Part shown: piece after piece, positions 3,784-57,234 of the stretch
How positions within the stretch are numbered: the first letter of the stretch is position 1
Layout of the letters: each line of letters starts with the position of its first letter
IMG/VR virus record: IMGVR_UViG_2844571421_000002
Span: 13,006 to 77,005 of that record
Source: a virus
Taxonomy: Duplodnaviria; Caudoviricetes
Strand: one strand, 5' to 3'
Length of the DNA: 64,000 nt
Notes under the pieces: generated by a model
The model's input: only the letters and a program-made list of their open reading frames with translations
Told to the model about the DNA's origin: nothing
The model's database searches: none
Made by a program: the position numbers and the translations under genes

Positions 3784-3814
3784 GTAAATGCGTGCGACTT
3801 CTGCGGATGGCTCA
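3784..3814 (-). promoter_or_regulatory. 31-bp phage motif upstream of protease/capsid operon
   Basis: TGAGCCATCCGCAGAAGTCGCACGCATTTAC, 8 nt from CATTTA to ATG. Confidence 0.75.
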
Positions 3815-6582: not shown

Positions 6583-7051
6583 CGCTGGCCCCCTTGTCCT
6601 CGAGTTGCTCGGACGGCGCCGCTTCGGCAGGCGGGGACGCTGGCGGCTCGTCCGGGAGGAACTTCCCCAGCCGGTCAATCAGTAGCTCGCGCAGCGCGGC
6701 AGTGTCGGCGGCCTGGTCCTCGGGGCTCTTCGCCTCGACGTTGTCGCGTCGGCCGTACAGCTCCGGGAAGCGGCGGCTCAAGAGCCACTGGACGTGCTTC
6801 GGGTTCGTCGTCGCGGCGGCCTGGAGAGTCTCTGTCGCCCCCTGCATGAACTCCGCTTCAGCCCGGTTCACCGCGACGAAGAACTCGCGGTAGAGCCCGC
6901 GCGCCTCGCTCGCGCCCCGGTGAAACCAACGGGAAACGGTCTGCTCGTCGACGCCTACGAGGCCCGCAGCCGCTCGACGGAAGAGGCCCGAGCGCAAGTG
7001 CTCGCAGATCTGCTGTTGAAGCTCAGGAGTGAGTTTGGTTGGTCGCGCCAC
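6575..7051 (-). CDS. terS: Terminase small subunit
   Basis: MARPTKLTPE N-terminus, HTH-like segment, WLLSRRFPELYG; overlaps terL start. Confidence 0.72.
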   Translation of the reverse strand: MARPTKLTPELQQQICEHLRSGLFRRAAAGLVGVDEQTVSRWFHRGASEARGLYREFFVAVNRAEAEFMQGATETLQAAATTNPKHVQWLLSRRFPELYGRRDNVEAKSPEDQAADTAALRELLIDRLGKFLPDEPPASPPAEAAPSEQLEDKGASDA

Positions 7052-7056
7052 ACCCG

Positions 7057-7087
7057 GTAAATGCGTGCGGTTTCGCGAAGTTTTTCA
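7057..7087 (-). promoter_or_regulatory. 31-bp phage motif upstream of terS
   Basis: ..GAAACCGCACGCATTTAC, 6 nt before GTG; upstream box degenerate. Confidence 0.7.
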
Positions 7088-7260
7088 GGGGAGCGCTCAA
7101 CAAAACGCATCGACCCACGGTTTTTCTCAGAATTTTTCGAAAGTGGGGGCGCTCCGAGCAAGCCTAGAATCCACCGCAGAAAGAAAATCCAGGCCGGGGG
7201 GCCACCACCGATAAACCGCTCAGATGGTAAGCCCGGCTCCTCTCGGAGTAGACTTCGACA

Positions 7261-7650
7261 ATGACCAAGTGGGCGAAGTGGAAACAGCGAGCACAAGAAC
7301 TCAAGCGCGAAACGGTGGTGCTCGTCATTGCCATGCGGCGCCCAGACGTGCCATGGCATGCGAAGTTGCTGGCCGCGCTGGTGGTGGCTTATGCGTTCAG
7401 CCCCATCGACCTCATCCCGGACTTCATCCCCGTCTTGGGCTATCTGGATGATTTGGTCCTGCTCCCGCTGGGCATTCTCCTCGTGCGAAGGCTCATCCCG
7501 CCGGCCGTCCTAGAGGAGTGCCGGGCGCAGGTTCAACGCGAGGAGGGCCGGAAGAAAACAAGCTGGGCGGCAGCCATTGTCATTATCCTGTTGTGGGTTT
7601 CACTGGGCATGTTCCTCGTCCGCTGGTGGCTGCACCGCCATCACGCATAG
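7261..7650 (+). CDS. YkvA/DUF1232-family membrane protein (cargo)
   Basis: PWHAK..AYAFSPIDLIPDFIPVLGYLDDL signature. Confidence 0.82.
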   Translation: MTKWAKWKQRAQELKRETVVLVIAMRRPDVPWHAKLLAALVVAYAFSPIDLIPDFIPVLGYLDDLVLLPLGILLVRRLIPPAVLEECRAQVQREEGRKKTSWAAAIVIILLWVSLGMFLVRWWLHRHHA

Positions 7651-7777
7651 ATAGGGGCCACCACTCATAATCTGCCAGACGGTCGACTCAGTCCCTCTCT
7701 GAGTGGGGACAATGGGCAGGCTGCTCGCTCTCCCATTTTCAAAGGGGAGCGGCAATCAGTTTCAGGATTCAACGTGA

Positions 7778-8074
7778 TCACTTGGCAATGATGCGTGCGT
7801 CACATGCCTGCACATCTGCACACCACGCCCGCCAGCGTCGCTGCCATGCCCCATCATCAGTGAGCCGCTCGTCGACCGTTAGCTCGCCGTGCCCACGTAA
7901 TAGGCGCAGGCCGCACAGGTCACACGGCATCGCGTACAGGTTCCGCCGTCGCGTCGCCTCCACGTCCGCGCATGCCATGTGACGAGCGCCAGTCGCGCGC
8001 TCGTAGGTGATGACCTCCCCTCGATCGATAGCGAGTGAGCACACGGCACAGGGGGAGCATCGCGAAGCCAGCAT
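7778..8074 (-). CDS. Small Cys/His-rich (Zn-binding) protein
   Basis: CxxC..HxxC and CxxC..C..C motifs; conserved at 49935-50243. Confidence 0.5.
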   Translation of the reverse strand: MLASRCSPCAVCSLAIDRGEVITYERATGARHMACADVEATRRRNLYAMPCDLCGLRLLRGHGELTVDERLTDDGAWQRRWRAWCADVQACDARIIAK

Positions 8075-8084
8075 GACGGGCACG

Positions 8085-8915
8085 CTACTGGTCCTGTCTG
8101 ACGAGCACCTCGCGCAGCTCAGCCAGCGCACGCGCGAGCATCCGGTCGACGCGACTCTTCGGCGCGCCCCATGCTTCCGCCACGGAGCGCACCGACTGCG
8201 CCGGGCGGTTGAGACCGAAGACGCGTGAAACAAGCTCCCGCTGCTCAGTGGCCAGCCGTCGCACGGCGTCGAACACGAGGGCTCGTCGCTCAGCCGCCAG
8301 CAACTTTGCCTCTGGCGTCTCTTCGTCGGCGTCCAGGCACGACATCTCGCGGAGTGCGGATTCCAACTCGTCGACCCATGAGGCATCGGCCGAAGCACCG
8401 TCCGAAAAATGAGACGGTATGTCCATGCGGTGGACTCGGACGACGTTGCGTTCGTTGCTACGGATTGAACGCACGGTGCGACGCTTGTGCCCGCCGTCGC
8501 TCAGGTGAACGTCGGTGCCGTGCAAGCGCGCGTACTGTTCGCAAGCAGCCCGCGCCCGGAAGTAGGCAACCTGGCCGAACGACTGGCGCCCCCTCGTGGC
8601 GTCGTACTTGGACACCGCGCGAAGCACCGCCATGGCGGCAACTTGCGCGAGGTCATCAGGCGACAGCGAGCCCGCGATGGGCAAGAGGGCCCCGACGATG
8701 CACCGGATGAGGGGTCTCATGGAGTCGATCAACTCAGCGGACAACCGTCGCTCCAGCACTGCGTTGCCGCCCGCGCGGGCCGACAGGATGCGGGACACGA
8801 GTTCGGATTGCCGGGCCGCCCGAAGGCCATACTCACCGTGTGAAACATGCTTTTTCGCACTACCCTTGCGACAAATGGCTGCGTGAGACATCGCCCCGAC
8901 AGGAGCATGCCGCAT
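8085..8915 (-). CDS. Phage sigma-70 family factor (start uncertain; open frame extends to 9152)
   Basis: Region 2 DDLAQVAAMAVLRAVSKYDATRG..F..AYF; region 4 HTH SVRSVAEAWGAPKSRVDRMLARAL. Confidence 0.88.
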   Translation of the reverse strand: MRHAPVGAMSHAAICRKGSAKKHVSHGEYGLRAARQSELVSRILSARAGGNAVLERRLSAELIDSMRPLIRCIVGALLPIAGSLSPDDLAQVAAMAVLRAVSKYDATRGRQSFGQVAYFRARAACEQYARLHGTDVHLSDGGHKRRTVRSIRSNERNVVRVHRMDIPSHFSDGASADASWVDELESALREMSCLDADEETPEAKLLAAERRALVFDAVRRLATEQRELVSRVFGLNRPAQSVRSVAEAWGAPKSRVDRMLARALAELREVLVRQDQ

Positions 8916-9020
8916 GCCGACAACGCTCGATTCACAGACAGTCTCAGACACGGTGATTGAACGCCTCGCCCGGAATGGGCCACACGAAGCTGGCCCTGCG
9001 GCACCACTGCCGCTCCCCCG

Positions 9021-9482
9021 GTAAATGCGTGTGGAATCCGTCAGCGGCTCACGCACGCTCGAAAGTGGCGGAGAAGGCGAGTCGGCATGCCCCGAGTAGA
9101 TGCGTGCGACTTCCGTGAACGGCGCAGGCATCAACGCCCCGTCATCAATCAAGCTCTCTTCCTATCCTCTCTCCTTCTTCTCTTTAGAAAAGATGGAGTA
9201 GTAGAAAGGAGGATAGGTAATAGAGAAGGCTAAGGATTTGGGGAACGCGCATTGGTGCCGCATGACGCCGGACGCCCTGACGCGACGCCTGAGCCATTCG
9301 CGAAATCCGCACTCATTTACCAGCGGCGGCGCGCACCACCTGCCGCATCCGCCCGGCTGACGATTCCGTGGGCCATTCGGAAAATCCGCACCCATTTACA
9401 GGGTGCCATGCACGTACCCCACACGCCTCCCGCCTCCATCGCACGCCTCACTGAGCCACTCGCAGAATCCGCACCCATTTAC
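9021..9482. repeat. Divergent array of five 31-bp motifs (9021-9051 and 9096-9126 on minus; 9290-9320, 9369-9399 and 9452-9482 on plus)
   Basis: Read directly; 75-83 bp periodicity; flanks an AT-rich tract. Confidence 0.85.
9127..9243. other. Candidate replication origin / cis-element (pyrimidine tract followed by purine tract)
   Basis: Identical to 51285-51401; CCTATCCT/AGGATAGG inverted repeat; upstream of primase. Confidence 0.5.
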
Positions 9483-11807
9483 CCAGGCATGAGCCACACG
9501 CCCGACACCACGCGCCTGCGCGTCCTTCGGCTGAAGGTCGCCTTCTACGCGTCCGCCCAGGACAACATCCCCCAGGCCGCTGAGCTGTCGTGGCCCGAAC
9601 TGTCAGCGAAACTCGTCTCACACCGTCGGAGTCAGTGCCCGACGTCGCCCTGTCCGCGAGGCTGCCCCGGCAAGAATGGCCCCGCATGGAGCCCTGTGGA
9701 CATCGTCGAGCGACGCCGCTCGGAGAACGTGCGCGCTGTCACGGTGGCGGTGTTCGACCTGGACCACCTCAACGCGCAACAGCTCTCGTTCCTCGACGCC
9801 GTCGAGCGCAACGGACTGGCCTATGCCCTCCACTCGACGCACAGCAACCGCCCGCCCGACGACTACTGCCTGCGGCTCGCCATGCCGCTGTCTCGGGCCG
9901 TCCTGCCCCGGGAATGGGCTTCGGTGCGCGAGGCGGCCATCCGCATGCTCAACTTTCCGGCCGACCCGGCAACGAAGGACTTGGCGCGCATCTACTACCT
10001 GCCCGACGCGCCCACGGGTGCGGAGCCCTACGCGGCCAGTGGAGACGGAGCGCCCCTCGACGTCGACGCGCTGCTCGCCATGTCCCGGGCTGGACTCCCC
10101 ACGATGGCGCCCCTGGTGCCGTCCGCGAAGCCCGAGGAACCAGCCGACCTGTACGGGCTGCGGGCCCTACTGCGGCGCATCCGCAAACCCGAGCACCTCG
10201 CCATCGTCCGCCGAGCCCTTGCCGGTGAGTCCCTGGCCCCCGTCGGCGAGCAGGACACGACACTGAACACGCTCATGTCGTGCGCCGCCTTCGTCCTGCC
10301 GCTGTCCACGCCCGAGGCCGTCGTCATTGAGCTGTTCCGCGCGTCCTTCGCTGCAACGGACTGGCAGGACGGGACGGAGCACCTGTGCGAGCAGGCCCTC
10401 TTGAAGCTGCGGCGTCACCGGGAGCGCCGGAAGGCTCGTGACGCGGGGCGGCTCGCCGACAACACGGCCATCTGGGAAGCCCTGGGCAGTCGCCCTCCTG
10501 ATCCCGCGTCGAGCGACGGGCCGGGATTCGAGGAGGACGCTCCCGACCCCGATGCGTGGATGAAGGAACTCTTCCTCGACATCACGAAGGACACCCGACG
10601 GCAGATTCGAAACTGTGAAGCGAACGTCGCCATCGTCCTCGGCAAGTCGCCCGAGTGGCGCGGCGTCTTCCGCTTCAACGAGGTCACGAAGAAGTTGGAG
10701 GTGGAGGGCGGCCCGCTCGGCCCCAACGTGGACATTGAGACGCTCGACGTCCTGGTGGCCAACTGGATTCAGCTCAGCAAGTACGGGCGGCTCGGGCTGA
10801 TGCCGAAGGCGCACATCGTCGCGCAGCAGCTCCTCGCCGTCGCGAAGCGCAACAGCTATGACCCGGTCGCCGACTACCTCGCGGGACTCGTCTGGGATGG
10901 AACGCCACGGCTCGACGGGATGCTCGCGACGTACTTCAGCGCCCAGGGGGATGCTCGATACCTCCGGGCCGTCGGCGCGAAGTTCGCCATCTCGGCGGTT
11001 GCGCGTGCCTTGCGCCCCGGGTGCAAGGTCGACACGGTGATGATTCTGGAGGGGCCGCAGGGCCTGCGAAAGTCGACGGCGTTCAGCATCCTGGGAGGCC
11101 GGTACTTCAGCGACGCGCCCATCGACGTCACCAGCAGGGACAGCGCCATGCTCGCCTCTCAGTTCTGGTTCATCGAACTGGCGGAACTGAGCACGTTTCG
11201 CAAGAGCGAGGACCAGGCGCTCAAGGCGTTCATCACCCGGACGGAGGACACCTACCGGCCGCCCTACGGACGCTCCAACGTGCAGGCCCCGCGACGCTGC
11301 GTCTTCGTCGGCACAACCAACGATGACGACTACCTGCGCGACCCCACGGGACAGAGGCGCTTCTGGCCGGTGAAGTGCAGCCGCATCGACACCGACGCCC
11401 TCAAGCGCGACCGCGACCAAATCTGGGCCGAAGCCGTCGTGCGCTTCCACCAGGGTGAGGACTGGTGGCTGAGCAACGAGGAAGCGGCCGGAGCCGAGCA
11501 GCAGGCCGCGCTTCGGATGGAGAACGTGGGGGACAGCCGCAAGGAGGTCATCCTGCGGTGGATTCTGGAGATGCCACCCGAAAAGCGACCCTCGGACGTG
11601 ACGCTTCTCCATGTAGGCATCGAAGCTTTCGCGCTCCACCAAGCGCAGGTTGACCACCGGATCTCACGGGAAATCGGCGCGGCCTTGAAGTCGCTGGGCT
11701 TCACCCGGGGCCAGCGCCGAATGGGAGACGGGAAGCGCCCGCTCGTCTACTACGTCCCGGACGAACTAAAGAACGCGCCCATGGAGAAGCGCGGCGAGCG
11801 ACAGTAA
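9408..11807 (+). CDS. Primase-helicase (N-terminal primase + VirE/VapE-family P-loop domain)
   Basis: AVFDLD, HSTHS, DPATKDLARIYYLP; Walker A GPQGLRKST; PRRCVFVGTTN..YL.DPTGQRRFWPV. Confidence 0.87.
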   Translation: MHVPHTPPASIARLTEPLAESAPIYPGMSHTPDTTRLRVLRLKVAFYASAQDNIPQAAELSWPELSAKLVSHRRSQCPTSPCPRGCPGKNGPAWSPVDIVERRRSENVRAVTVAVFDLDHLNAQQLSFLDAVERNGLAYALHSTHSNRPPDDYCLRLAMPLSRAVLPREWASVREAAIRMLNFPADPATKDLARIYYLPDAPTGAEPYAASGDGAPLDVDALLAMSRAGLPTMAPLVPSAKPEEPADLYGLRALLRRIRKPEHLAIVRRALAGESLAPVGEQDTTLNTLMSCAAFVLPLSTPEAVVIELFRASFAATDWQDGTEHLCEQALLKLRRHRERRKARDAGRLADNTAIWEALGSRPPDPASSDGPGFEEDAPDPDAWMKELFLDITKDTRRQIRNCEANVAIVLGKSPEWRGVFRFNEVTKKLEVEGGPLGPNVDIETLDVLVANWIQLSKYGRLGLMPKAHIVAQQLLAVAKRNSYDPVADYLAGLVWDGTPRLDGMLATYFSAQGDARYLRAVGAKFAISAVARALRPGCKVDTVMILEGPQGLRKSTAFSILGGRYFSDAPIDVTSRDSAMLASQFWFIELAELSTFRKSEDQALKAFITRTEDTYRPPYGRSNVQAPRRCVFVGTTNDDDYLRDPTGQRRFWPVKCSRIDTDALKRDRDQIWAEAVVRFHQGEDWWLSNEEAAGAEQQAALRMENVGDSRKEVILRWILEMPPEKRPSDVTLLHVGIEAFALHQAQVDHRISREIGAALKSLGFTRGQRRMGDGKRPLVYYVPDELKNAPMEKRGERQ

Positions 11808-12839: not shown

Positions 12840-12870
12840 CGCGCCACTCCTGAAATCCGCACCCATTTAG
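12840..12870 (+). promoter_or_regulatory. 31-bp phage motif upstream of Cas4-like nuclease
   Basis: GCGCCACTCCTGAAATCCGCACCCATTTAG, 6 nt from CATTTA to GTG. Confidence 0.7.
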
Positions 12871-12875
12871 AGAGG

Positions 12876-14201
12876 GTGACTCCCTCTCTCGACGCCCCCA
12901 CGAACAGCCCCTCGGTCATCGCCGGGGTCATCCAGCGGCTGAGCGTTTCCCAGCTCAAGCGCCACAAGCTGTGCCCGCGCGCATGGTTCTTTCAGAAGGT
13001 CATGCGCGTCCCCGAGCCCAGCACGGGAGCGCAGCAGGTCGGCACCGAAGGACACGCCCAGCTAGAGCATTTCCTAGTGACGGGTGAAGACGTCCTGGGC
13101 ACGTTCGCGAGGGCAGGCGCCCATCTTCTGCCCACGCCCGGTCCCGACCTGCTTATCGAGCAGCCCTTGAACGGTGAACCGTCGCTGATGGCTGGCGGCA
13201 TCCCCTTCACCGGATTCATCGACCTCGTAGACGCTCGACGGCTCGCCTCTGACGGCGTCCTTCGCATCACCGACCACAAGTTCACCAGCAACGTCGCGAC
13301 GAATGCCGCGAGCGCCGAACAGCTCACCGACGCCGACACCGAACCGGGCTTGCAGATGGTCGGCTATGGCGCGTGGGCGCTCAGCCAGGTTGAGCGATTC
13401 CCGGGGCTGCGCACGCTGGAGCTTGAACACCTCTACTACCAGACTCGGGGACAACGCCTTGCCGCGTCCGTCGTCGCAACGGTGCCCGCCGAGCACGTCG
13501 AGCGCGAGTGGCAGACAAAGGTCGAGCCCCAGGTCGAAGCGATGAAGGAGCACGCGCAAGCCGCCCGCGCTTCCGACGTGCCCGCGAACTACGGCCCCGC
13601 CTGCGGCAAGTACGGCGGATGTCCGTTCATGGCGAAGTGCCTCACAGGAGAGAACAAGACGATGTCCCTGCGCGACAAGCTGCTCAACAAGGCTTCCGAG
13701 TCCGCCCCCCTTACCGTTGCCGCGGTCGAGCGCAACGCCACGGAGCTGCCCGCCGTTCTTCCCCCAGACGCGCCCGCACCTACGCCCGTGCAGACGGCCC
13801 CAGAGGTCGCCCAGGCCACTGAGCAGCCCGCGCCGAAGCGTCGCGGTCGCCCTCGCAAGGTGGCCGAGTCCGAGCAGCCCAAGGGCGAAATGCGCGTGCT
13901 CTTCGTCGACTGCATCCCGACGACCTTCGACGGACCGACGCCCGAGTCGCTTACGAGCTACGTCGACACCATGCATCGCAAGGTGGCCGAAGCGGGCGGC
14001 GTCGACGACGTGCGCTTCGCGGGCTCCGACTCGGCGCTCGGGTTCGGCAAGTGGCGCGGGGCGCTGGCCATGGCGGCGCGCGCCGAGCTGCCCGCCCCCG
14101 GCAGCTACGTCGCGCTCGGGGTCGCCCAGTCGGAGCTGATGCAGGTCATCGTCGAGGCGCTCGAACCGGCGTTCGACGTGGTCGTTCGTGGCGTCCACTA
14201 A
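12876..14201 (+). CDS. PD-(D/E)xK Cas4/AddB-like exonuclease with C-terminal AT-hook-bearing extension
   Basis: LSVSQL..CPR, GFIDL..DHKF, C-terminal C..C..C cluster; PKRRGRPRK. Confidence 0.8.
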   Translation: MTPSLDAPTNSPSVIAGVIQRLSVSQLKRHKLCPRAWFFQKVMRVPEPSTGAQQVGTEGHAQLEHFLVTGEDVLGTFARAGAHLLPTPGPDLLIEQPLNGEPSLMAGGIPFTGFIDLVDARRLASDGVLRITDHKFTSNVATNAASAEQLTDADTEPGLQMVGYGAWALSQVERFPGLRTLELEHLYYQTRGQRLAASVVATVPAEHVEREWQTKVEPQVEAMKEHAQAARASDVPANYGPACGKYGGCPFMAKCLTGENKTMSLRDKLLNKASESAPLTVAAVERNATELPAVLPPDAPAPTPVQTAPEVAQATEQPAPKRRGRPRKVAESEQPKGEMRVLFVDCIPTTFDGPTPESLTSYVDTMHRKVAEAGGVDDVRFAGSDSALGFGKWRGALAMAARAELPAPGSYVALGVAQSELMQVIVEALEPAFDVVVRGVH

Positions 14202-16176: not shown

Positions 16177-17943
16177 ATGGCCAATACTGTCCGCTTCCAG
16201 GTCGACCCCCGCCTTGCAACCCTTCTAGGGGAGAACTACCGCTCAACTGAGCAAGCTCTCAAAGAGCTTATCGACAATGCATGGGATGCGGACGCCGAAG
16301 TTGTCCGCGTAACGATGCCAGATGAAGCAATCACTGCGGGGCCGATCGTCGTCGCGGACGATGGACTTGGGATGACCCATCGCGAAGTAGGTAGCGAGTA
16401 TCTACTGGTGGCACAGGATCGCCGGAGCCAACGTGGAAACGAATCTCCGCGATTTGGGCGCAAAGTCAAAGGTCGAAAAGGGATCGGTAAATTTGCAGGC
16501 TTGATGGTGGCAGACACAATGGTCGTCGAAACAAGGTCACGGGGAGACTACACCCGCCTTGAGATCCAGAAGGGCGACCTAAATACCAAGCGGCATCTCG
16601 AAAAGGTCGAACTCCCTTCGACGACAAAAACCTGCAATGCCACCGAACATGGCACCAAGGTCACCTTAACCAACCTAAACCAGAGACTCTCTGCCCCATC
16701 CACCGAAAAACTACGCCAATTGCTGGCAGCAGAATACGCACGCGCTCCCGGATTTAAAATCTTCATCAATGACACTCCTGTCAACATCACATCCATCCCC
16801 GGAAAGCCTTTCGAGAGAACGTTCAACACTCCGGACATCGGCACCATCGCCCTAAACCTACGCATCGCAAGTGGAGACAAGCCAACAAAGATTAAAAACC
16901 CAGGGATCTCTATCCGAGTAGGAGGGAAAATCGTCGGACGCCCCACGTTTTGCGGACTAGATTCCGACCCCACGATTCCACGCAAACTGCTCAACAGGGT
17001 CTTTGGTGAAGTCGAAGCTGATGGGCTCCTCGGCGACACAACCCCAGACTTTGGCGACTTCTTCGAGAATAGCCGAGCATATGCGCAGGTACAGAACATC
17101 ATTCAGGGGGCACTAAAGGAGCGACTCCAGAAGGAGTTCGCTCGCGAAATCAATCTCCTAAAGGCAAGGAACGCCAAAGAGATTAAAAAGGCTCTGGAAC
17201 GTCTTCCGGAGCATCGGAAGAAAGCGGCACACGAAGCAATCGAGCGGATTCTTACAAAGTTCTTCGGAGAGTCGGAGGAACGAATTACCTCCATCATCTC
17301 CGTAGCATTGGAAGCACTCGAACGCGATGAATACTGGGTGGTCTTGAACTCCATCCAAAAAGCCAAGCTGGGCGATGTCGCTGGCTTTGCCGATGCACTG
17401 GTTGACTTTGGCATAACGGACATGGCCTTCATGGCTCAACAAGCTCGAGGGCGTCTTGCCGTACTGCGGGAACTAACTGAGTTGATGCTAGATTCTGCAA
17501 CCGAAGAAAAGCAGATGCATGTCATCATCGAAAAGAACCTCTGGATCCTAGGGCCGACCTATGCGCTCTACGCATCCAACAAAACCCTATCAAGTATTCT
17601 TGAATCATTTATTGACCGCGCAGCCCTAACAGACAGGTGGAACAAAAGACCGGACCTCCTCATCTGCAACACCATCGACGAAAAGCACTTGCTGATTGAG
17701 CTCAAGCGCCCCTCACACTCGCTAACGCGTGACGACCAAAGTCAGGCAGAAAAATACCGAGACACACTCATTGCTCATTTCACGCCCCTTGAGATACTTG
17801 TCATAGGAGGAAAAACATCACCCCAAATGAACACAAACTACATGCCGACCGATCTCAAGGTCGCCTCGTACGCCCAAGTCGTCGCCCGCGCGGAAGCTCA
17901 ACTCAAGTGGCTCGTCACGCAAATCACAGATGACAAAGGTTAA
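16177..17943 (+). CDS. GHKL (MORC-like) ATPase fused to C-terminal PD-(D/E)xK nuclease (cargo)
   Basis: ELIDNAWDA, DDGLGM, GRKGIGKF, GTKV; C-terminal RPDLLI..IELKRP. Confidence 0.82.
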   Translation: MANTVRFQVDPRLATLLGENYRSTEQALKELIDNAWDADAEVVRVTMPDEAITAGPIVVADDGLGMTHREVGSEYLLVAQDRRSQRGNESPRFGRKVKGRKGIGKFAGLMVADTMVVETRSRGDYTRLEIQKGDLNTKRHLEKVELPSTTKTCNATEHGTKVTLTNLNQRLSAPSTEKLRQLLAAEYARAPGFKIFINDTPVNITSIPGKPFERTFNTPDIGTIALNLRIASGDKPTKIKNPGISIRVGGKIVGRPTFCGLDSDPTIPRKLLNRVFGEVEADGLLGDTTPDFGDFFENSRAYAQVQNIIQGALKERLQKEFAREINLLKARNAKEIKKALERLPEHRKKAAHEAIERILTKFFGESEERITSIISVALEALERDEYWVVLNSIQKAKLGDVAGFADALVDFGITDMAFMAQQARGRLAVLRELTELMLDSATEEKQMHVIIEKNLWILGPTYALYASNKTLSSILESFIDRAALTDRWNKRPDLLICNTIDEKHLLIELKRPSHSLTRDDQSQAEKYRDTLIAHFTPLEILVIGGKTSPQMNTNYMPTDLKVASYAQVVARAEAQLKWLVTQITDDKG

Positions 17944-18055: not shown

Positions 18056-18086
18056 CGAACCACTCCCAAAATCCGCACGCATTTAC
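18056..18086 (+). promoter_or_regulatory. 31-bp phage motif upstream of SSB-polymerase operon
   Basis: CGAACCACTCCCAAAATCCGCACGCATTTAC followed by GTCAGCG/CGCTGAC hairpin leader. Confidence 0.72.
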
Positions 18087-18141
18087 GTGGGGTCAGCGCA
18101 CTTCGCCGCTGACGTAACCCAAGTCGAAGGGCCCACGTAAC

Positions 18142-20765: not shown

Positions 20766-20813
20766 ACCACGGCCGAAATCCGCACCCATTTAGGGAGCAC
20801 ACGCACTCCCTAA
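20763..20813 (+). promoter_or_regulatory. 31-bp phage motif plus overlapping TTAGGGAG/CTCCCTAA hairpin
   Basis: Read directly; repeated at 63204-63254. Confidence 0.7.
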
Positions 20814-20825
20814 CAGGTGCAACGC

Positions 20826-21561: not shown

Positions 21562-21777
21562 ATGCCTGATAGCAATGAAGGCACTCCCGAGTTCCTGACG
21601 GTCGATGAGGCCGCAGCACTTCTGCGCGTGAACCGAAAGACACTCTACGAGTCGATTCGGCTGGGTCAGGTGCCGGGAGTCGTTCGCATCGGGAAAGCGC
21701 TGCGAATCCGGCATGCCGCGCTGGTAGAGTCCCCCTCCGGGAAGGGCCGCGATTCTGCGCTTTGGAGTCGACGATGA
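21562..21777 (+). CDS. xis: Excisionase (MerR/HTH_17-like)
   Basis: FLTVDEAAALLRVNRKTLYESI..G.VP..RIG; ATGA overlap with int. Confidence 0.85.
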   Translation: MPDSNEGTPEFLTVDEAAALLRVNRKTLYESIRLGQVPGVVRIGKALRIRHAALVESPSGKGRDSALWSRR

Positions 21778-22994
21778 GCGCCAGGTTGCGGAAGTGGACG
21801 ACGAAGGAAGGAAAGTCTGAGGAGGCGTGGCAAGTGGACTTCGTGTTTCAGCATGCGGACGGACGGAAACAGCGAGTCGTGAAGTTCTCGCCCGTCCAGA
21901 CCCGTCGGGGTGCTGAGCAATACGAACGCGAGCTGCGCAGCGCCTTGCTCAACGGGACTTTCGGAAAGGAGCAGTGCGGCGAGGAAAGCCCCATCACGCT
22001 TGCGGACTTCACTCCGCGGCTCCTCACCTACAGCGAGAACAACAACAAGCACTCAAGCGTCGACAGCAAACGACAGATTCTCAGAGACCATATCCTCCCC
22101 TTCTTCGGGAAGGTGGCGCTCGCGAACATCGGCTTGGCCGAAATCGAAGACTTCAAGGCGCACATGCGCAAGAAGAAGTCGGCAGCTCACAAGCGGAAGG
22201 ACTCCGCGTCAAAGCGAGCCATCCGGAAGCGGCAGCGTAGCGAACCCAAGCCCCTGAGTCTGAAGACCATCAACAACGTGCTGACTGTGCTTCACAAGCT
22301 CCTGACGCTCGCAGAAGAGCATGGGGTCATCCGGCAGGCGCCGCGCGTAAAGCCCTTCGGGAAGCTACCGAAGCCTCCCTTCGACTTCCTGAGCTTTGAG
22401 GAAGCGGATCAGCTTCTCGCCGTCGCTGAGCCCGAATGGCGCACGTTGCTGCGCGTCGCCATCAAGACGGGGCTTCGGCAGGGGGAGCTGATCGGGCTCC
22501 AGTGGCACGACCTGACCCTGACGCGGGGCCTGCTTCACGTTCGCAGGACCATTTGGCGCGGGATAGAGGGTTTGCCGAAGGGTGGGCGTGAACGGACGGT
22601 CGACTTGCCCGCCTCCGTGGTTGATGCGCTCAACGGCCACCGGCACCGTCGGGGGCGGTTCGTCTTCTGTCAGGAGGACGGGCAGCCACTCACCAAGGGC
22701 AAGATGGCGGCACCGCTGGGTCGCGCCCTCCGGGCGGCGGGCATCACCCGCGAAGTGGGGCAAATCGGCTGGCACGATCTGCGCCATACCTACGGCAGCC
22801 ATCTCGCGATGAGGGGTGTCCCGCTGAAGGTGATTCAGGAGCTGATGGGGCACGCGACCATCGAGATGACGAATCGCTACGCCCACCTGAGCCCCGACAC
22901 TCGGAGAGAGGCAGTCGCCGTTTTGGACCGGCCTCTCGCTCTGCCGTGCGACATACGTGCAACATGGAAGGAGGCCGCTCCTAACTGCACGTAA
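21774..22994 (+). CDS. int: Tyrosine integrase
   Basis: TGLRQGEL, HDLRH, MGHA, RYAH catalytic residues. Confidence 0.96.
   Translation: MSARLRKWTTKEGKSEEAWQVDFVFQHADGRKQRVVKFSPVQTRRGAEQYERELRSALLNGTFGKEQCGEESPITLADFTPRLLTYSENNNKHSSVDSKRQILRDHILPFFGKVALANIGLAEIEDFKAHMRKKKSAAHKRKDSASKRAIRKRQRSEPKPLSLKTINNVLTVLHKLLTLAEEHGVIRQAPRVKPFGKLPKPPFDFLSFEEADQLLAVAEPEWRTLLRVAIKTGLRQGELIGLQWHDLTLTRGLLHVRRTIWRGIEGLPKGGRERTVDLPASVVDALNGHRHRRGRFVFCQEDGQPLTKGKMAAPLGRALRAAGITREVGQIGWHDLRHTYGSHLAMRGVPLKVIQELMGHATIEMTNRYAHLSPDTRREAVAVLDRPLALPCDIRATWKEAAPNCT
22945..22965 (+). repeat. 11-bp-period direct repeat CGTGC(G/A)ACAT, putative arm-type site inside the int 3' end
   Basis: CGTGCGACAT-A-CGTGCAACAT read directly; arm role inferred. 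Confidence 0.5.
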
Positions 22995-23010: not shown

Positions 23011-23096
23011 TGCACGAGCCGGGGATCGAACCCGGACGGCCCTTACGGGCCAGCGGATTTTAAGTCCGCTGCGTCTGCCAGTTCCGCCACTCGTGC
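23011..23096 (-). tRNA. trnL: tRNA-Leu (anticodon UAA); CCA not encoded; att site
   Basis: Acceptor stem GCACGAG/CTCGTGC, anticodon arm GCGGA-CTTAAAA-TCCGC, long variable arm, GGTTCGATCCC T-arm. Confidence 0.97.
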
Positions 23097-28788: not shown

Positions 28789-29072
28789 CGGGAATCCCCC
28801 GACGCGGCCTGGGCCCTGCGAAGAAGCTCCAACTCCACCGTCTGCCGGACCTGAACAGGAAGACCGACGGCAAACTCGTCGCGCCACCGCCGCAAGGCAC
28901 CCAACTCCACCGCGAGGGCGTTGATGCGCTCGTCCTGGCGGGCGACCTTCTCGACGAGCGAGCGGATCTCCCCCACAAGGGACTTCGCGGCCCAGGTGAG
29001 GACACCGACTCCCGCCGTTCCGAGCAGGGAGCCGACTACGAGCTGAATGGACTGGGTCTCTTCTGCGGTCAC
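28785..29072 (-). CDS. Single-TM + coiled-coil lysis-cassette protein (holin/antiholin-like)
   Basis: N-terminal TM, coiled coil; first gene after the phage motif. Confidence 0.5.
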   Translation of the reverse strand: MTAEETQSIQLVVGSLLGTAGVGVLTWAAKSLVGEIRSLVEKVARQDERINALAVELGALRRWRDEFAVGLPVQVRQTVELELLRRAQAASGDSR

Positions 29073-29101
29073 GGCATCACCGGGGATTAGGAGTGCCCCA
29101 G

Positions 29102-49934: not shown

Positions 49935-50243
49935 CTATCCACGGGACGTGATTCGGACGTCACATGCTTGCACGTCGACGCAGCGAGCCCGCCAGCTTCG
50001 ACGCCACGATCCGCCGTCCGTTAGACGCTCGTCGACTGCCAGCTCGCCTTGCCCTCGTAGTAGGCGCACGCCGCAAAGGTCGCACGGCATCGGGTACAGG
50101 TTGCGCCGCCAAGCTGCCTCGCGTTCTAAGCAGGCCAAGTGCCGAGCCCCGACGGTGCGCTCGTAGGTGGTGACCTTGCCCGGCTCAATGGGAAGGGAGC
50201 ACGCGGCACACGGTACGCGCCTCTTAGCGGTCAGGGTGGGCAG
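49935..50243 (-). CDS. Small Zn-binding protein (start unclear)
   Basis: Homolog of 7778-8074; open frame up to the sigma stop, no ATG at the equivalent position. Confidence 0.42.
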   Translation of the reverse strand: MPTLTAKRRVPCAACSLPIEPGKVTTYERTVGARHLACLEREAAWRRNLYPMPCDLCGVRLLRGQGELAVDERLTDGGSWRRSWRARCVDVQACDVRITSRG

Positions 50244-50244
50244 C

Positions 50245-51075
50245 TCAGCTCCCCCGCTCGCCCAGCATCAGGCGCAGGTCGGCTAGAGCACGCGCGAGCA
50301 TCCGGTCGACGCGACTCTTCGGCGCGCCCCATGCTTCCGCCACGGAGCGCACCGACTGCGCCGGGCGGTTGAGGCCGAACACGCGGGACACCAGCTCTCG
50401 TTGCTCGGGAGACAACTGCCGCACGGCCTTGAACACGAGGGCTCGACGCTCAGCCGCCAGCAGCTCCGCCTCGGGAGTGTCCCCGTCGGGCTCCAGGCAC
50501 GACATCTCGCGGAGTGCGGATTCCAACTCGTCGACCCACGAGTCATCGGCGGAAGCACCGTCCGAGAAATGAGACGGTATGTCCATGCGGTGGACTCGGA
50601 CGACGTTGCGTTCGTTGCTGTGGATTGAACGCACGGTGCGACGCTTGTGCGCGCCGTCGCTCAGGTGAACGTCGGTGCCGTGCAAGCGCGCGTACTGCTC
50701 GCAGGCAGCCCGCGCCCGGAAGTAGGCAACCTGACCGAACGAATGGCGCCCCCTCGTGGCGTCGTACTTGGACACCGCGCGAAGCACCGCCATGGAGGCA
50801 ACTTGTGCGAGGTCATCAGGCGACAACGAGCCCGCGATGGGCAAGAGGGCCCCGACGATGCGGCGGATGATGGGCCTCATGGAGATGAGCAACTCAGCGG
50901 ACAGTCGTCGCTCCAGCACGGCGTTGCCGCTCGCGCGGGCCGACAGGATGCGGGGCACGAGTTCGGATTGCCGAGCCGCCTGAAGGCCATACTCACTGTG
51001 TGAAACATGTTTTTTCGCACTTCCCTTGCGACAAATGGCTGCGTGAGACATCGCCCCAACAAGAGCATGCCGCAT
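50245..51075 (-). CDS. Phage sigma-70 family factor (start uncertain; frame open to 51246)
   Basis: Homolog of 8085-8915. Confidence 0.88.
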   Translation of the reverse strand: MRHALVGAMSHAAICRKGSAKKHVSHSEYGLQAARQSELVPRILSARASGNAVLERRLSAELLISMRPIIRRIVGALLPIAGSLSPDDLAQVASMAVLRAVSKYDATRGRHSFGQVAYFRARAACEQYARLHGTDVHLSDGAHKRRTVRSIHSNERNVVRVHRMDIPSHFSDGASADDSWVDELESALREMSCLEPDGDTPEAELLAAERRALVFKAVRQLSPEQRELVSRVFGLNRPAQSVRSVAEAWGAPKSRVDRMLARALADLRLMLGERGS

Positions 51076-51177: not shown

Positions 51178-51633
51178 GTAAATGCGTGTGGATTCCGGCA
51201 GCGGCTCACGCACTCTCGAAAAGTGGCGACGAAGGCGAGTCGGCATGTCCCGAGTAGATGCGTGCGACTTCCGCGAACGACTCAGGCATCAACGCCCCGT
51301 CATCAATCAAGCTCTCTTCCTATCCTCTCTCCTTCTTCTCTTTAGAAAAGATGGAGTAGTAGAAAGGAGGATAGGTAATAGAGAAGGCTAAGGATTTGGG
51401 GGAACGCGCTCCAGTGCCGCCTGACGCCCCGCCGCGACAGCCGAGCCATTCGCGAAATCCGCACTCGTTTACCAGGGACGGCACGACTACCTGCCGCATC
51501 CGCCCGGCTGACGATTCCGTGGGCCATTCGGAAAATCCGCACCCATTTACCGGATGCCATGCACGCACCCCACACGCCTCCCGCCTCCGTCGCACGCCTC
51601 GCTGAGCCATTCACAGAATCCGCACTCATTTAC
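51178..51633. repeat. Divergent array of five 31-bp motifs around the conserved tract 51285-51401
   Basis: 51178-51208 and 51254-51284 (minus); 51442-51472, 51520-51550 and 51603-51633 (plus). Confidence 0.85.
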
Positions 51634-57057: not shown

Positions 57058-57234
57058 CTACTTCCTCAAGTACTCGTAGATCCTGTTCGGACTTAGATCA
57101 AAGCAATTGGCGATGTCCGCAACACGCATGCCTGCATCGCGCATCGCCTTCGCACAGATCGCCCGAATCTTCGTGTCCCTGCGGACCAACTCCTTCCACT
57201 GACCGGTCTTCGAGTACCAATTCTTTCCTTGCAT
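57058..57234 (-). CDS. 58-aa helix-turn-helix protein (not in ORF track)
   Basis: MQGKNWYSKTGQWKELVRRDTKIRAICAKAMRDAGMRVADIANCFDLSPNRIYEYLRK; SD AGGAGG. Confidence 0.7.
   Translation of the reverse strand: MQGKNWYSKTGQWKELVRRDTKIRAICAKAMRDAGMRVADIANCFDLSPNRIYEYLRK

Follow-up and report, generated by a model that had tools for sequence, protein, structure and literature searches.

A phage sigma factor as the putative master regulator of two tandem temperate siphoviruses

Two tandem prophages in the IMG/VR provirus record IMGVR_UViG_2844571421_000002 appear to be organized around a single sigma factor of their own. The sigma gene of the first copy lies within the window, by which we mean the whole 64-kb stretch of DNA analysed here; it spans bases 13006–77005 of the 77,005-base record, and all coordinates below are window coordinates (Table 1). 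We propose that this one phage sigma factor drives the entire prophage as well as its own gene, that the prophage is silent by default, and that the gate lies in the leader of the sigma mRNA. We assign this reading a probability of roughly 55%. The sections of evidence that follow concern the sigma protein, the promoter motif that precedes its gene and every core operon, the sigma leader, and the outcome of a search for a conventional repressor.

The product of the open reading frame (ORF) at 8085–8891 is a true sigma-70-family factor, with region 2 followed by region 4. Both sigma copies match the NCBIfam profile TIGR02937 over residues 61–270, scoring 54.4 and 53.8 bits against a cut-off of 42.9, and the protein also matches PHROG 351 (‘RNA polymerase sigma factor’). 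The separate Pfam profiles for regions 2 and 4 reach 20.7 and 16.3 bits, each below its own cut-off. A profile built from the sigma family matches FliA structures over residues 65–265. An AlphaFold2 model contains a sigma2 domain (residues ∼26–132) and a sigma4 domain (∼200–275), both with a predicted local distance difference test score (pLDDT) of 86–96, separated by a disordered linker of ∼50 residues. When this model was compared with the folds in the PDB, all of the top 50 matches were sigma factors. The two copies of the gene have diverged with a ratio of non-synonymous to synonymous substitution rates (dN/dS) of 0.29. The recognition regions show strong conservation in the family as a whole, and the DNA that encodes them is identical between the siblings.

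The mechanically called ORF (8085–9152) is over-extended, and the conserved start is the ATG at 8891, which opens the protein with M-S/F-H. Upstream of this ATG, substitutions show no codon periodicity, insertions and deletions occur, and some relatives carry in-frame stop codons. Since indels and non-periodic substitutions separate the two copies here, the sigma leader is non-coding. A separate observation concerns a minus-strand ATG placed 7 nucleotides (nt) past the distal sigma promoter (9086–9088 in copy A; 51244–51246 in copy B). It opens a 15-codon ORF in copy A; in copy B and in the related locus L009 it is in frame with sigma and would give a protein of 333–334 amino acids (aa). An N-terminally extended sigma factor was considered on this basis and rejected: the leaderless ATG after the distal promoter is in frame in copy B but out of frame in copy A, where it yields only the 15-aa peptide. 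The frame is probably either a chance open frame or a small leaderless upstream ORF.

A bipartite motif of ∼33 nt, TGAGCCA-N10-ATCCGCACNCATTTAC, recurs throughout both prophages. It comprises a −35-like TGAGCCA, a gap of ∼10 nt, a conserved spacer or extended −10 element (ATCCGCAC), one variable position and a −10-like CATTTAC. The two hexamer-like boxes are separated by 17–18 nt, which is promoter geometry. The window contains 23 copies of the core ATCCGCACNCATTTAC, where 0.70 would be expected, and none of 100 shuffled sequences reached 23; the whole 77-kb record holds 25 copies of the motif. Every copy is oriented in the direction of transcription of the genes downstream of it, and copies almost never fall within operons. 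Each co-directional block of core genes is headed by a copy, giving about a dozen near-identical promoters per genome, and the only genes outside this pattern are variable cargo. A consensus scan of 6900–9700 found no sigma-70-type promoter. In four host genomes of 9–12 Mb, the 13-mer core of the motif has 1–16 matches each, clustered on prophage contigs, while a control pattern has 0–1. Confinement to prophage contigs means that the motif is not a host promoter class. We infer from these sequence patterns that the motif promoters are read by the phage sigma factor.

At 12–13 of the 25 sites, the start codon of a real gene follows the motif by only 5–8 nt, as seen for terS, for the protease, primase and nuclease genes and for a gene of the tail block. 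Such a gap leaves no space for a ribosome-binding site, and leaderless mRNAs are therefore predicted. The remaining sites have leaders of 23–55 nt that open with a short hairpin. Those at 12871–12900, 18087–18125, 20794–20815 and 29060–29101 (minus strand) are GC-rich and sit at the predicted 5′ end of the mRNA, as in GTCAGCG-N8-CGCTGAC; such hairpins may act as 5′ stabilizers. A further observation comes from 9384–9491, where two in-frame ATGs of the primase ORF each lie 6–8 nt past a promoter copy of their own. Two leaderless primase mRNAs could thus yield isoforms whose N-termini differ by 27 residues.

The sigma gene itself is preceded by two copies of this motif, P1 and P2, and the gene in copy B likewise lies behind two copies on the minus strand. 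The initial annotation had described sigma as preceded by two copies of the element that also precedes the lytic operons, and had called the factor self-targeting on these grounds; both statements hold up, the second across a wider set of relatives. Sigma relatives with 46–95% identity were collected from species genomes (7 loci), from IMG/VR (18 loci) and from a genome survey that contributed further loci. Sigma and the motif occur together in the same layout at all of these loci, from 95% down to 46% sigma identity (7 genome and 18 IMG/VR loci). In the survey, the gene was found in 9 of 151 genomes of the order, and a metagenome scan added a single, near-identical locus. The layout was compared across 27 loci that are related to one another. 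All 27 have an intact sigma ORF of 263–269 aa, and 25 of them carry one or two motif copies upstream of it, at −133 to −225. Within the 18 loci of the main group, the proximal copy keeps a fixed position, −141 to −146 relative to the sigma ATG. Because one or two motif copies precede sigma in 25 of the 27 loci, the self-activating layout is a conserved design at the level of sequence. Positive feedback on the sigma gene is what this shared architecture points to, and bistability of the resulting loop would be its expected consequence. Cross-activation between the siblings, also suggested at the outset, is a reasonable expectation, given that both use the same motifs and that their recognition regions are encoded by identical DNA.

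Among the first genes of the regulon, sigma alone has a long leader, a feature that the initial annotation had rightly singled out. In the main group the length of this leader varies by ∼3 nt at most. When 19 distinct leaders were aligned without gaps, two blocks proved invariant or nearly so, although the sigma protein falls to ∼60% identity. The first block is a box, CACCGTGNCTGAGACTGTCTGTGAA, which is near-invariant in the 19 leaders and occurs once per prophage. In the four host genomes it was found only at these prophages, and its interpretation as the site of a host regulon was rejected on this ground. It does not seem to fit what we take to be the M. xanthus LexA box. A transcriptome paper on UV and LexA makes no mention of phage genes. 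The second block is a six-pair hairpin; between it and the sigma ATG lie 12 variable nt with no Shine–Dalgarno sequence. The Y/R pair of its stem is UA in 12 leaders, UG in 5 and CG in 2, with no mispairs. An Rfam search returned tRNA only and no known RNA element in the leader.

Table 1. Coordinates of the main features of the two prophages (window coordinates)
Feature	Position	Strand	Remarks
Copy A	∼11.3 kb before window start to ∼23.1 kb		
Copy B	27,578 to contig end		Truncated there by the contig
Phage sigma factor gene, copy A	8085..8891	-	268 aa; sigma2–sigma4 core with disordered linker of ∼50 aa
Sigma leader	8892..9013	-	∼120 nt from predicted P1 transcription start site (∼9013); ∼195 nt from P2; non-coding
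Leader hairpin GGCAYG-N3-CRTGCT	8904..8918 (−27 to −13)	-	Six pairs; 13 nt before ATG
Leader box CACCGTGNCTGAGACTGTCTGTGAA	8931..8955 (about −61 to −41 from ATG)	-	25 nt; AGAC-T-GTCT dyad core
P1, proximal promoter of sigma	9021..9053 (core 9021–9036)	-	TGAGCCG ... TTCCACACGCATTTAC
P2, distal promoter of sigma	9096..9128 (core 9096–9111)	-	Weaker −10 variant CATCTAC; in 12/27 loci
AT-rich purine/pyrimidine inverted repeat	9161..9217 (copy B ∼51320–51380)	.	22-nt arms; between divergent sigma and primase promoters
Three tandem promoters of primase/VapE operon	9288..9482	+	Second and third end 8 and 6 nt before in-frame ATGs
Zn-ribbon ORF	7778..8074	-	98 aa; starts 10 nt past sigma stop; candidate ligands C9, C12, H32, C35, C51, C54, C85, C91
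Promoter of terS-terL-portal operon	7057..7072	-	GTG 5 nt downstream
Promoter of protease/capsid operon	3784..3799	-	ATG 7 nt downstream
Promoter of PD-(D/E)XK nuclease/helicase operon	12855..12870	+	GTG 5 nt downstream
Promoter of operon of 176-aa ORF and DNA polymerase A	18071..18086	+	55-nt leader beginning with hairpin
Promoter upstream of 60-aa ORF and RuvC-like gene	20778..20793	+	xis and int follow co-directionally with no further motif copy before them
xis and tyrosine integrase, copy A	21562..22994	+	xis = HTH_17, 41 bits, ∼21562–21777; int 21762–22994
tRNA-Leu(TAA)	23011–23096		Adjoins copy A integrase; its 3′ end faces the prophage; attachment (att) site of copy A
Sigma factor gene, copy B	50245..51051	-	Promoters 51178–51193 and 51254–51269; Zn-ribbon ORF 49941–50234

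Within reach of profile searches, these prophages have no CI/Cro-type switch. Six-frame hidden Markov model (HMM) searches of the whole 77-kb record, with positive controls, gave zero matches at E<=10 to PF01381 (HTH_3), PF00717 (Peptidase_S24), PF13560 (HTH_31) or PF12844 (HTH_19), in agreement with the initial report that an XRE- or S24-type repressor is missing. A six-frame search with RHH_1 (PF01402) produced a single sub-threshold noise match of 12.8 bits inside an AbiTii cargo gene. The only credible helix-turn-helix (HTH) protein in the six-frame searches is the HTH_17 excisionase beside int. Scans of the unassigned ORFs against Pfam, NCBIfam and PHROG yielded no repressor or other regulator, and a weakly HTH_7-like ORF of 58 aa (57058–57234), present in copy B only, is cargo. 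Whether they belong to one of the two divergent arms or to the sigma operon, all conserved genes have a motif copy ahead of them. Judged by gene placement, a silent lysogen could express only cargo, and this cargo is not the same in the two siblings.

The circuit that we propose from these elements runs as follows. One sigma-70-family factor would serve the lysis, morphogenesis, packaging and replication blocks, and probably xis and int as well. About half of its promoters would start transcription at or beside the start codon, generating leaderless mRNAs. These private promoters would not be read by the host RNA polymerase, leaving the prophage off by default. Indeed, the prophage is most likely silent by default, because neither a host-type promoter nor a CI-, Cro- or LexA-like repressor is detectable. 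The decision would then rest on the amount of sigma protein that is made or active. Once present, sigma would amplify itself through its own promoters and then switch on the entire genome. The leader would be the likeliest gate, with low certainty, acting either through translational occlusion or as a docking site for some factor; where the co-transcribed Zn-ribbon protein is present, it may add an accessory brake. In its strongest form, this scheme amounts to lysogeny without any repressor: all promoters, that of sigma included, would be invisible to the host RNA polymerase, and the decision would be the ignition of a self-activating loop gated by the mRNA leader. We offer this stronger form only tentatively. 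The initial annotation held that silence must be imposed post-transcriptionally; possible alternatives are a repressor with a novel fold, some host factor or a state that is simply off by default.

Several considerations weigh against the proposal. HMM searches cannot exclude a repressor of unknown fold, and the record is a provirus fragment to which the host genome is not attached. The proposal does not account for the first sigma molecules, whether during infection or on induction. The integrase and the excisionase also appear to be driven from the same promoters, and the scheme offers no clear route into lysogeny. The covariation in the leader hairpin involves one pair position with few independent changes. 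The box and the hairpin are kept in the main group only; the leaders of the group-2 loci (L023, L024, L037, L038 and L041) differ in sequence. Finally, transcription, promoter use and recognition of the motif by sigma are predictions from sequence.

The leader box also lends itself to a different explanation, in which a repressor of unrecognized fold, encoded by the phage or by the host, binds the box and blocks read-through from P1 and P2, such that one operator would silence the genome. The box has the appearance of an operator: it is near-invariant and bears a dyad, its place downstream of the promoters and ahead of the ATG is fixed, and each prophage has just one copy, with none at other sites in the host genomes. 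Several core ORFs also lack a family assignment and could in principle supply the protein. However, the conserved unassigned ORFs all lie behind sigma-dependent promoters and are therefore not expected to be expressed in a silent lysogen, while the genes that could be expressed there are the variable cargo. The Zn-ribbon ORF does not co-vary with the box either, as it is present in L023 and L024, which have no box, and absent from many loci that do. We regard a hidden repressor as a possible, if doubtful, alternative to a sigma loop gated by its leader.

Directly downstream of sigma lies the Zn-ribbon ORF, which the initial annotation had put forward as an anti-sigma factor. It is a real gene, with a dN/dS of 0.22 and eight invariant Cys/His residues (C9-x2-C12, H32-x2-C35, C51-x2-C54, C85 and C91). 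Its dS between the siblings is ∼1.0, five times that of its neighbours (∼0.16–0.26), and the last sigma codons are likewise diverged; this pattern suggests that the module was exchanged by recombination. The family is an orphan confined to Myxococcota, with no name and no Pfam domain. Searches of Pfam, NCBIfam, PHROG, the ESM Atlas, a set of 5.8 billion proteins and PDB folds yielded only this orphan Myxococcota family.

On the anti-sigma hypothesis, the Zn-ribbon protein would be made 1:1 with sigma from one transcript and would hold it until a signal, such as thiol oxidation at the Cys/His residues, set sigma free. The model would be SigR–RsrA. In such pairs of an extracytoplasmic function (ECF) sigma factor and a zinc anti-sigma factor, the sigma operon is self-activated and a small Cys-rich protein is encoded directly downstream. 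The layout here is alike, with a self-activating sigma operon and a small Cys-rich ORF in the classical position, 10 nt downstream and co-oriented. The eight invariant Cys/His residues and the purifying selection also count in its favour, and a dS far above that of the neighbours is often seen in specificity modules. The number of promoters points the same way: the Zn-ribbon ORF is kept in 11 of the 12 two-promoter loci, and 8 of the 9 loci that lack it are single-promoter, an association that is suggestive only, a lead drawn from loci that are related to each other.

The protein itself fits the hypothesis less well. It lacks the HxxxCxxC motif of zinc-associated anti-sigma (ZAS) proteins, and its AlphaFold2 model (pLDDT 75) is a zinc-ribbon-like β-hairpin with helices rather than a helical anti-sigma domain, with no PDB match at E<=0.001. 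The sigma factor also differs from the ECF type in its ∼50-aa disordered linker and in having FliA-type proteins as its best sequence match. The ORF follows sigma at 10 nt in 18 of the 27 loci and is absent or disrupted in the other 9, all of which have an intact sigma gene. In L009, an HNH-type homing-endonuclease-like ORF (L009:10945–11535) occupies the slot and only a 5′ remnant of the Zn-ribbon ORF is left; in L004 the slot is taken by a reversed cargo ORF of 305 aa; and L007 has a stop codon within the ORF. A gene that is dispensable in a third of relatives, each with sigma intact, cannot be a universal lock, and the idea of an obligatory anti-sigma factor is not sustained. We consider anti-sigma control rather unlikely as the basis of silence; where present, the Zn-ribbon protein is a candidate for an accessory brake at most. 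Control of sigma by the att-linked kinases, a further suggestion of the initial annotation, finds no footing, as nothing links these kinases to sigma and they lie beyond tRNA-Leu, outside attR of copy A.

The leader hairpin raises another possibility, namely that a host sigma-54 promoter just before the sigma ATG, together with a host enhancer-binding protein, provides both the first sigma transcript and the induction signal. The bases of the hairpin also show the GG-N10-GC spacing of sigma-54 promoters. The element CGGCAYG-N4-RTGCT is invariant in the 19 distinct leaders, and the GG-N10-GC spacing is fixed 13 nt before the ATG across the variable spacer; transcription would start ∼2 nt before the ATG, in keeping with the leaderless habit of the other promoters. 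However, the same bases make a hairpin with wobble-tolerant covariation (UA, UG, CG), which offers an explanation of their conservation without sigma-54. The group-2 relatives lack the GG-N10-GC element, and in place of GGCAYG-N3-CRTGCT they have other hairpins. No enhancer-binding protein (PF00158) is encoded in the record. The comparison itself relies on TGGCACG-N4-TTGCW, which we take to be the sigma-54 consensus, and this too counts against the proposal. A sigma-54 trigger therefore strikes us as clearly unlikely. A last reading, in which the motif is a repressor operator and not a promoter, is highly improbable: the motif is asymmetric and multicopy, points along transcription in every case and stands where operons begin, as is true of the stoperators of mycobacteriophage L5, but its bipartite structure with ∼17–18 nt between the boxes and its fixed distance of 5–8 nt to start codons fit a promoter that sets the 5′ end of the mRNA, motif sites are almost never inside operons, and the element encodes its own sigma factor while a DNA-binding repressor was not found.

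A self-activating sigma factor on a mobile element is already known, and the closest described circuit is that of SigN (ZpdN) from the Bacillus subtilis plasmid/prophage pBS32 (Burton et al. 2019). There, a LexA-repressed SigA promoter (PsigN1) acts as the trigger and a SigN-dependent promoter locks the system on; pBS32 also has a weak constitutive sigN promoter (PMC6751061). The SigN regulon is confined to pBS32, and SigN promoters largely avoid the prophage structural genes of pBS32 (PMC6751061). At the sequence level, the system described here shares with pBS32 an element-encoded sigma-70-family factor, a promoter of its own type before its own gene, a regulon confined to the element and a circuit for which no CI-type switch is invoked. 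It differs in that no host-type promoter or LexA-like site was identified to match the LexA-repressed, host-type trigger of pBS32, and in that a motif copy stands at the head of each core block of a temperate siphovirus that appears intact, structural and lysis genes included, with mostly leaderless mRNAs. No sequence relationship was found, the sigma factor described here having no tblastn match in 50,697 phage records.

The defective prophage PBSX offers a second parallel. Its XRE-family repressor, Xre, controls xpf, and the sigma-like Xpf is the positive master regulator of the late genes. A prophage-encoded sigma-like factor thus serves as positive master regulator in both cases; the present record differs from PBSX in having no HTH_3 protein and in a sigma factor that also serves the replication genes and its own gene. 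The likeness to lambda lies in the divergent arms around a central control region and in integration at a tRNA gene with xis–int. In contrast to the CI/Cro system, there is here no XRE HTH protein, S24 peptidase, Cro-like protein or gene oriented for expression in the lysogen.

The two prophages are tandem sibling siphovirus elements, 89–95% identical across the core, and a self-comparison of the record gives a period of ∼39–43 kb. Their gene content points to a complete siphovirus module. The structural core comprises the small and large terminase, portal, protease, major head protein and head–tail adaptor, followed by the major tail protein, tape measure and a J-like tip protein; lysis is represented by an M15 endolysin, and replication by primase/VapE, a PD-(D/E)XK nuclease, a helicase, DNA polymerase A and a RuvC-like protein. 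The siblings differ chiefly at synonymous sites (dN/dS 0.02–0.29), and because their genes are under purifying selection both copies look functional. The initial annotation had described prophage 2 as complete except for xis and int. Copy A has both genes beside tRNA-Leu; copy B is simply cut by the contig end. No duplicate of the tRNA-Leu att segment was found anywhere in the record.

Between the divergent sigma and primase promoters lies an AT-rich inverted repeat that is 100% identical in the two copies while its flanks vary; in L002 it is triplicated together with flanking sequence. It may be a replication origin or an architectural site.

Blocks of AT-richer cargo, different in the two copies, are interspersed between the core blocks. 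They include a DUF1232 gene, a GHKL ATPase gene with an SduA_C-like end, two AbiTii genes and an Mrr-like gene. The low-GC GHKL gene (16177–17943), which occurs only in copy A, encodes a HATPase_c_3 domain and a C-terminus with weak resemblance to SduA_C and restriction N-terminal domains, and looks like a defence gene. Directly to the left of copy A, on the minus strand of record bases 1–1636 (13,004 to 11,370 nt before the window start), lies a gene for an IS21-family IstA-like transposase of 544 aa that is cut by the contig end.

Judged from its homologues, the host belongs to Myxococcus and its relatives. A tblastn search with sigma against 50,697 records of sequenced phages gave zero matches, and the large terminase reaches only ∼38% identity at best among sequenced phages. 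A natural point of comparison is Mx-alpha of M. xanthus, which consists of tandemly repeated prophage-like units of ∼80–100 kb with unit-specific cargo (PMC6070905, PMC12390754). The elements described here are likewise tandem prophage-like repeats in Myxococcus with cargo of their own in each unit, and M. xanthus genomes, too, contain relatives of the sigma factor; the repeat period differs, at ∼40 kb. The Mx-alpha papers (PMC6070905, PMC12390754) make no mention of a sigma factor, a repressor or promoters.

The biology of temperate phages has been built on repressor–operator switches, and here a whole phage genome can be read as one private sigma regulon. If promoter orthogonality and a gated leader are borne out, these prophages would follow a different design principle for lysogeny, representing a new class of switch as opposed to operator-bound repression. 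They would also offer a compact orthogonal expression system of natural origin. Work on the system is favoured by a host genus amenable to genetics, by sequenced Myxococcus strains that harbour close relatives of the element and by cis elements whose positions are known to the nucleotide. In a wider vein, such a switch may be relevant to the silence of the tandem prophage-like regions in M. xanthus.

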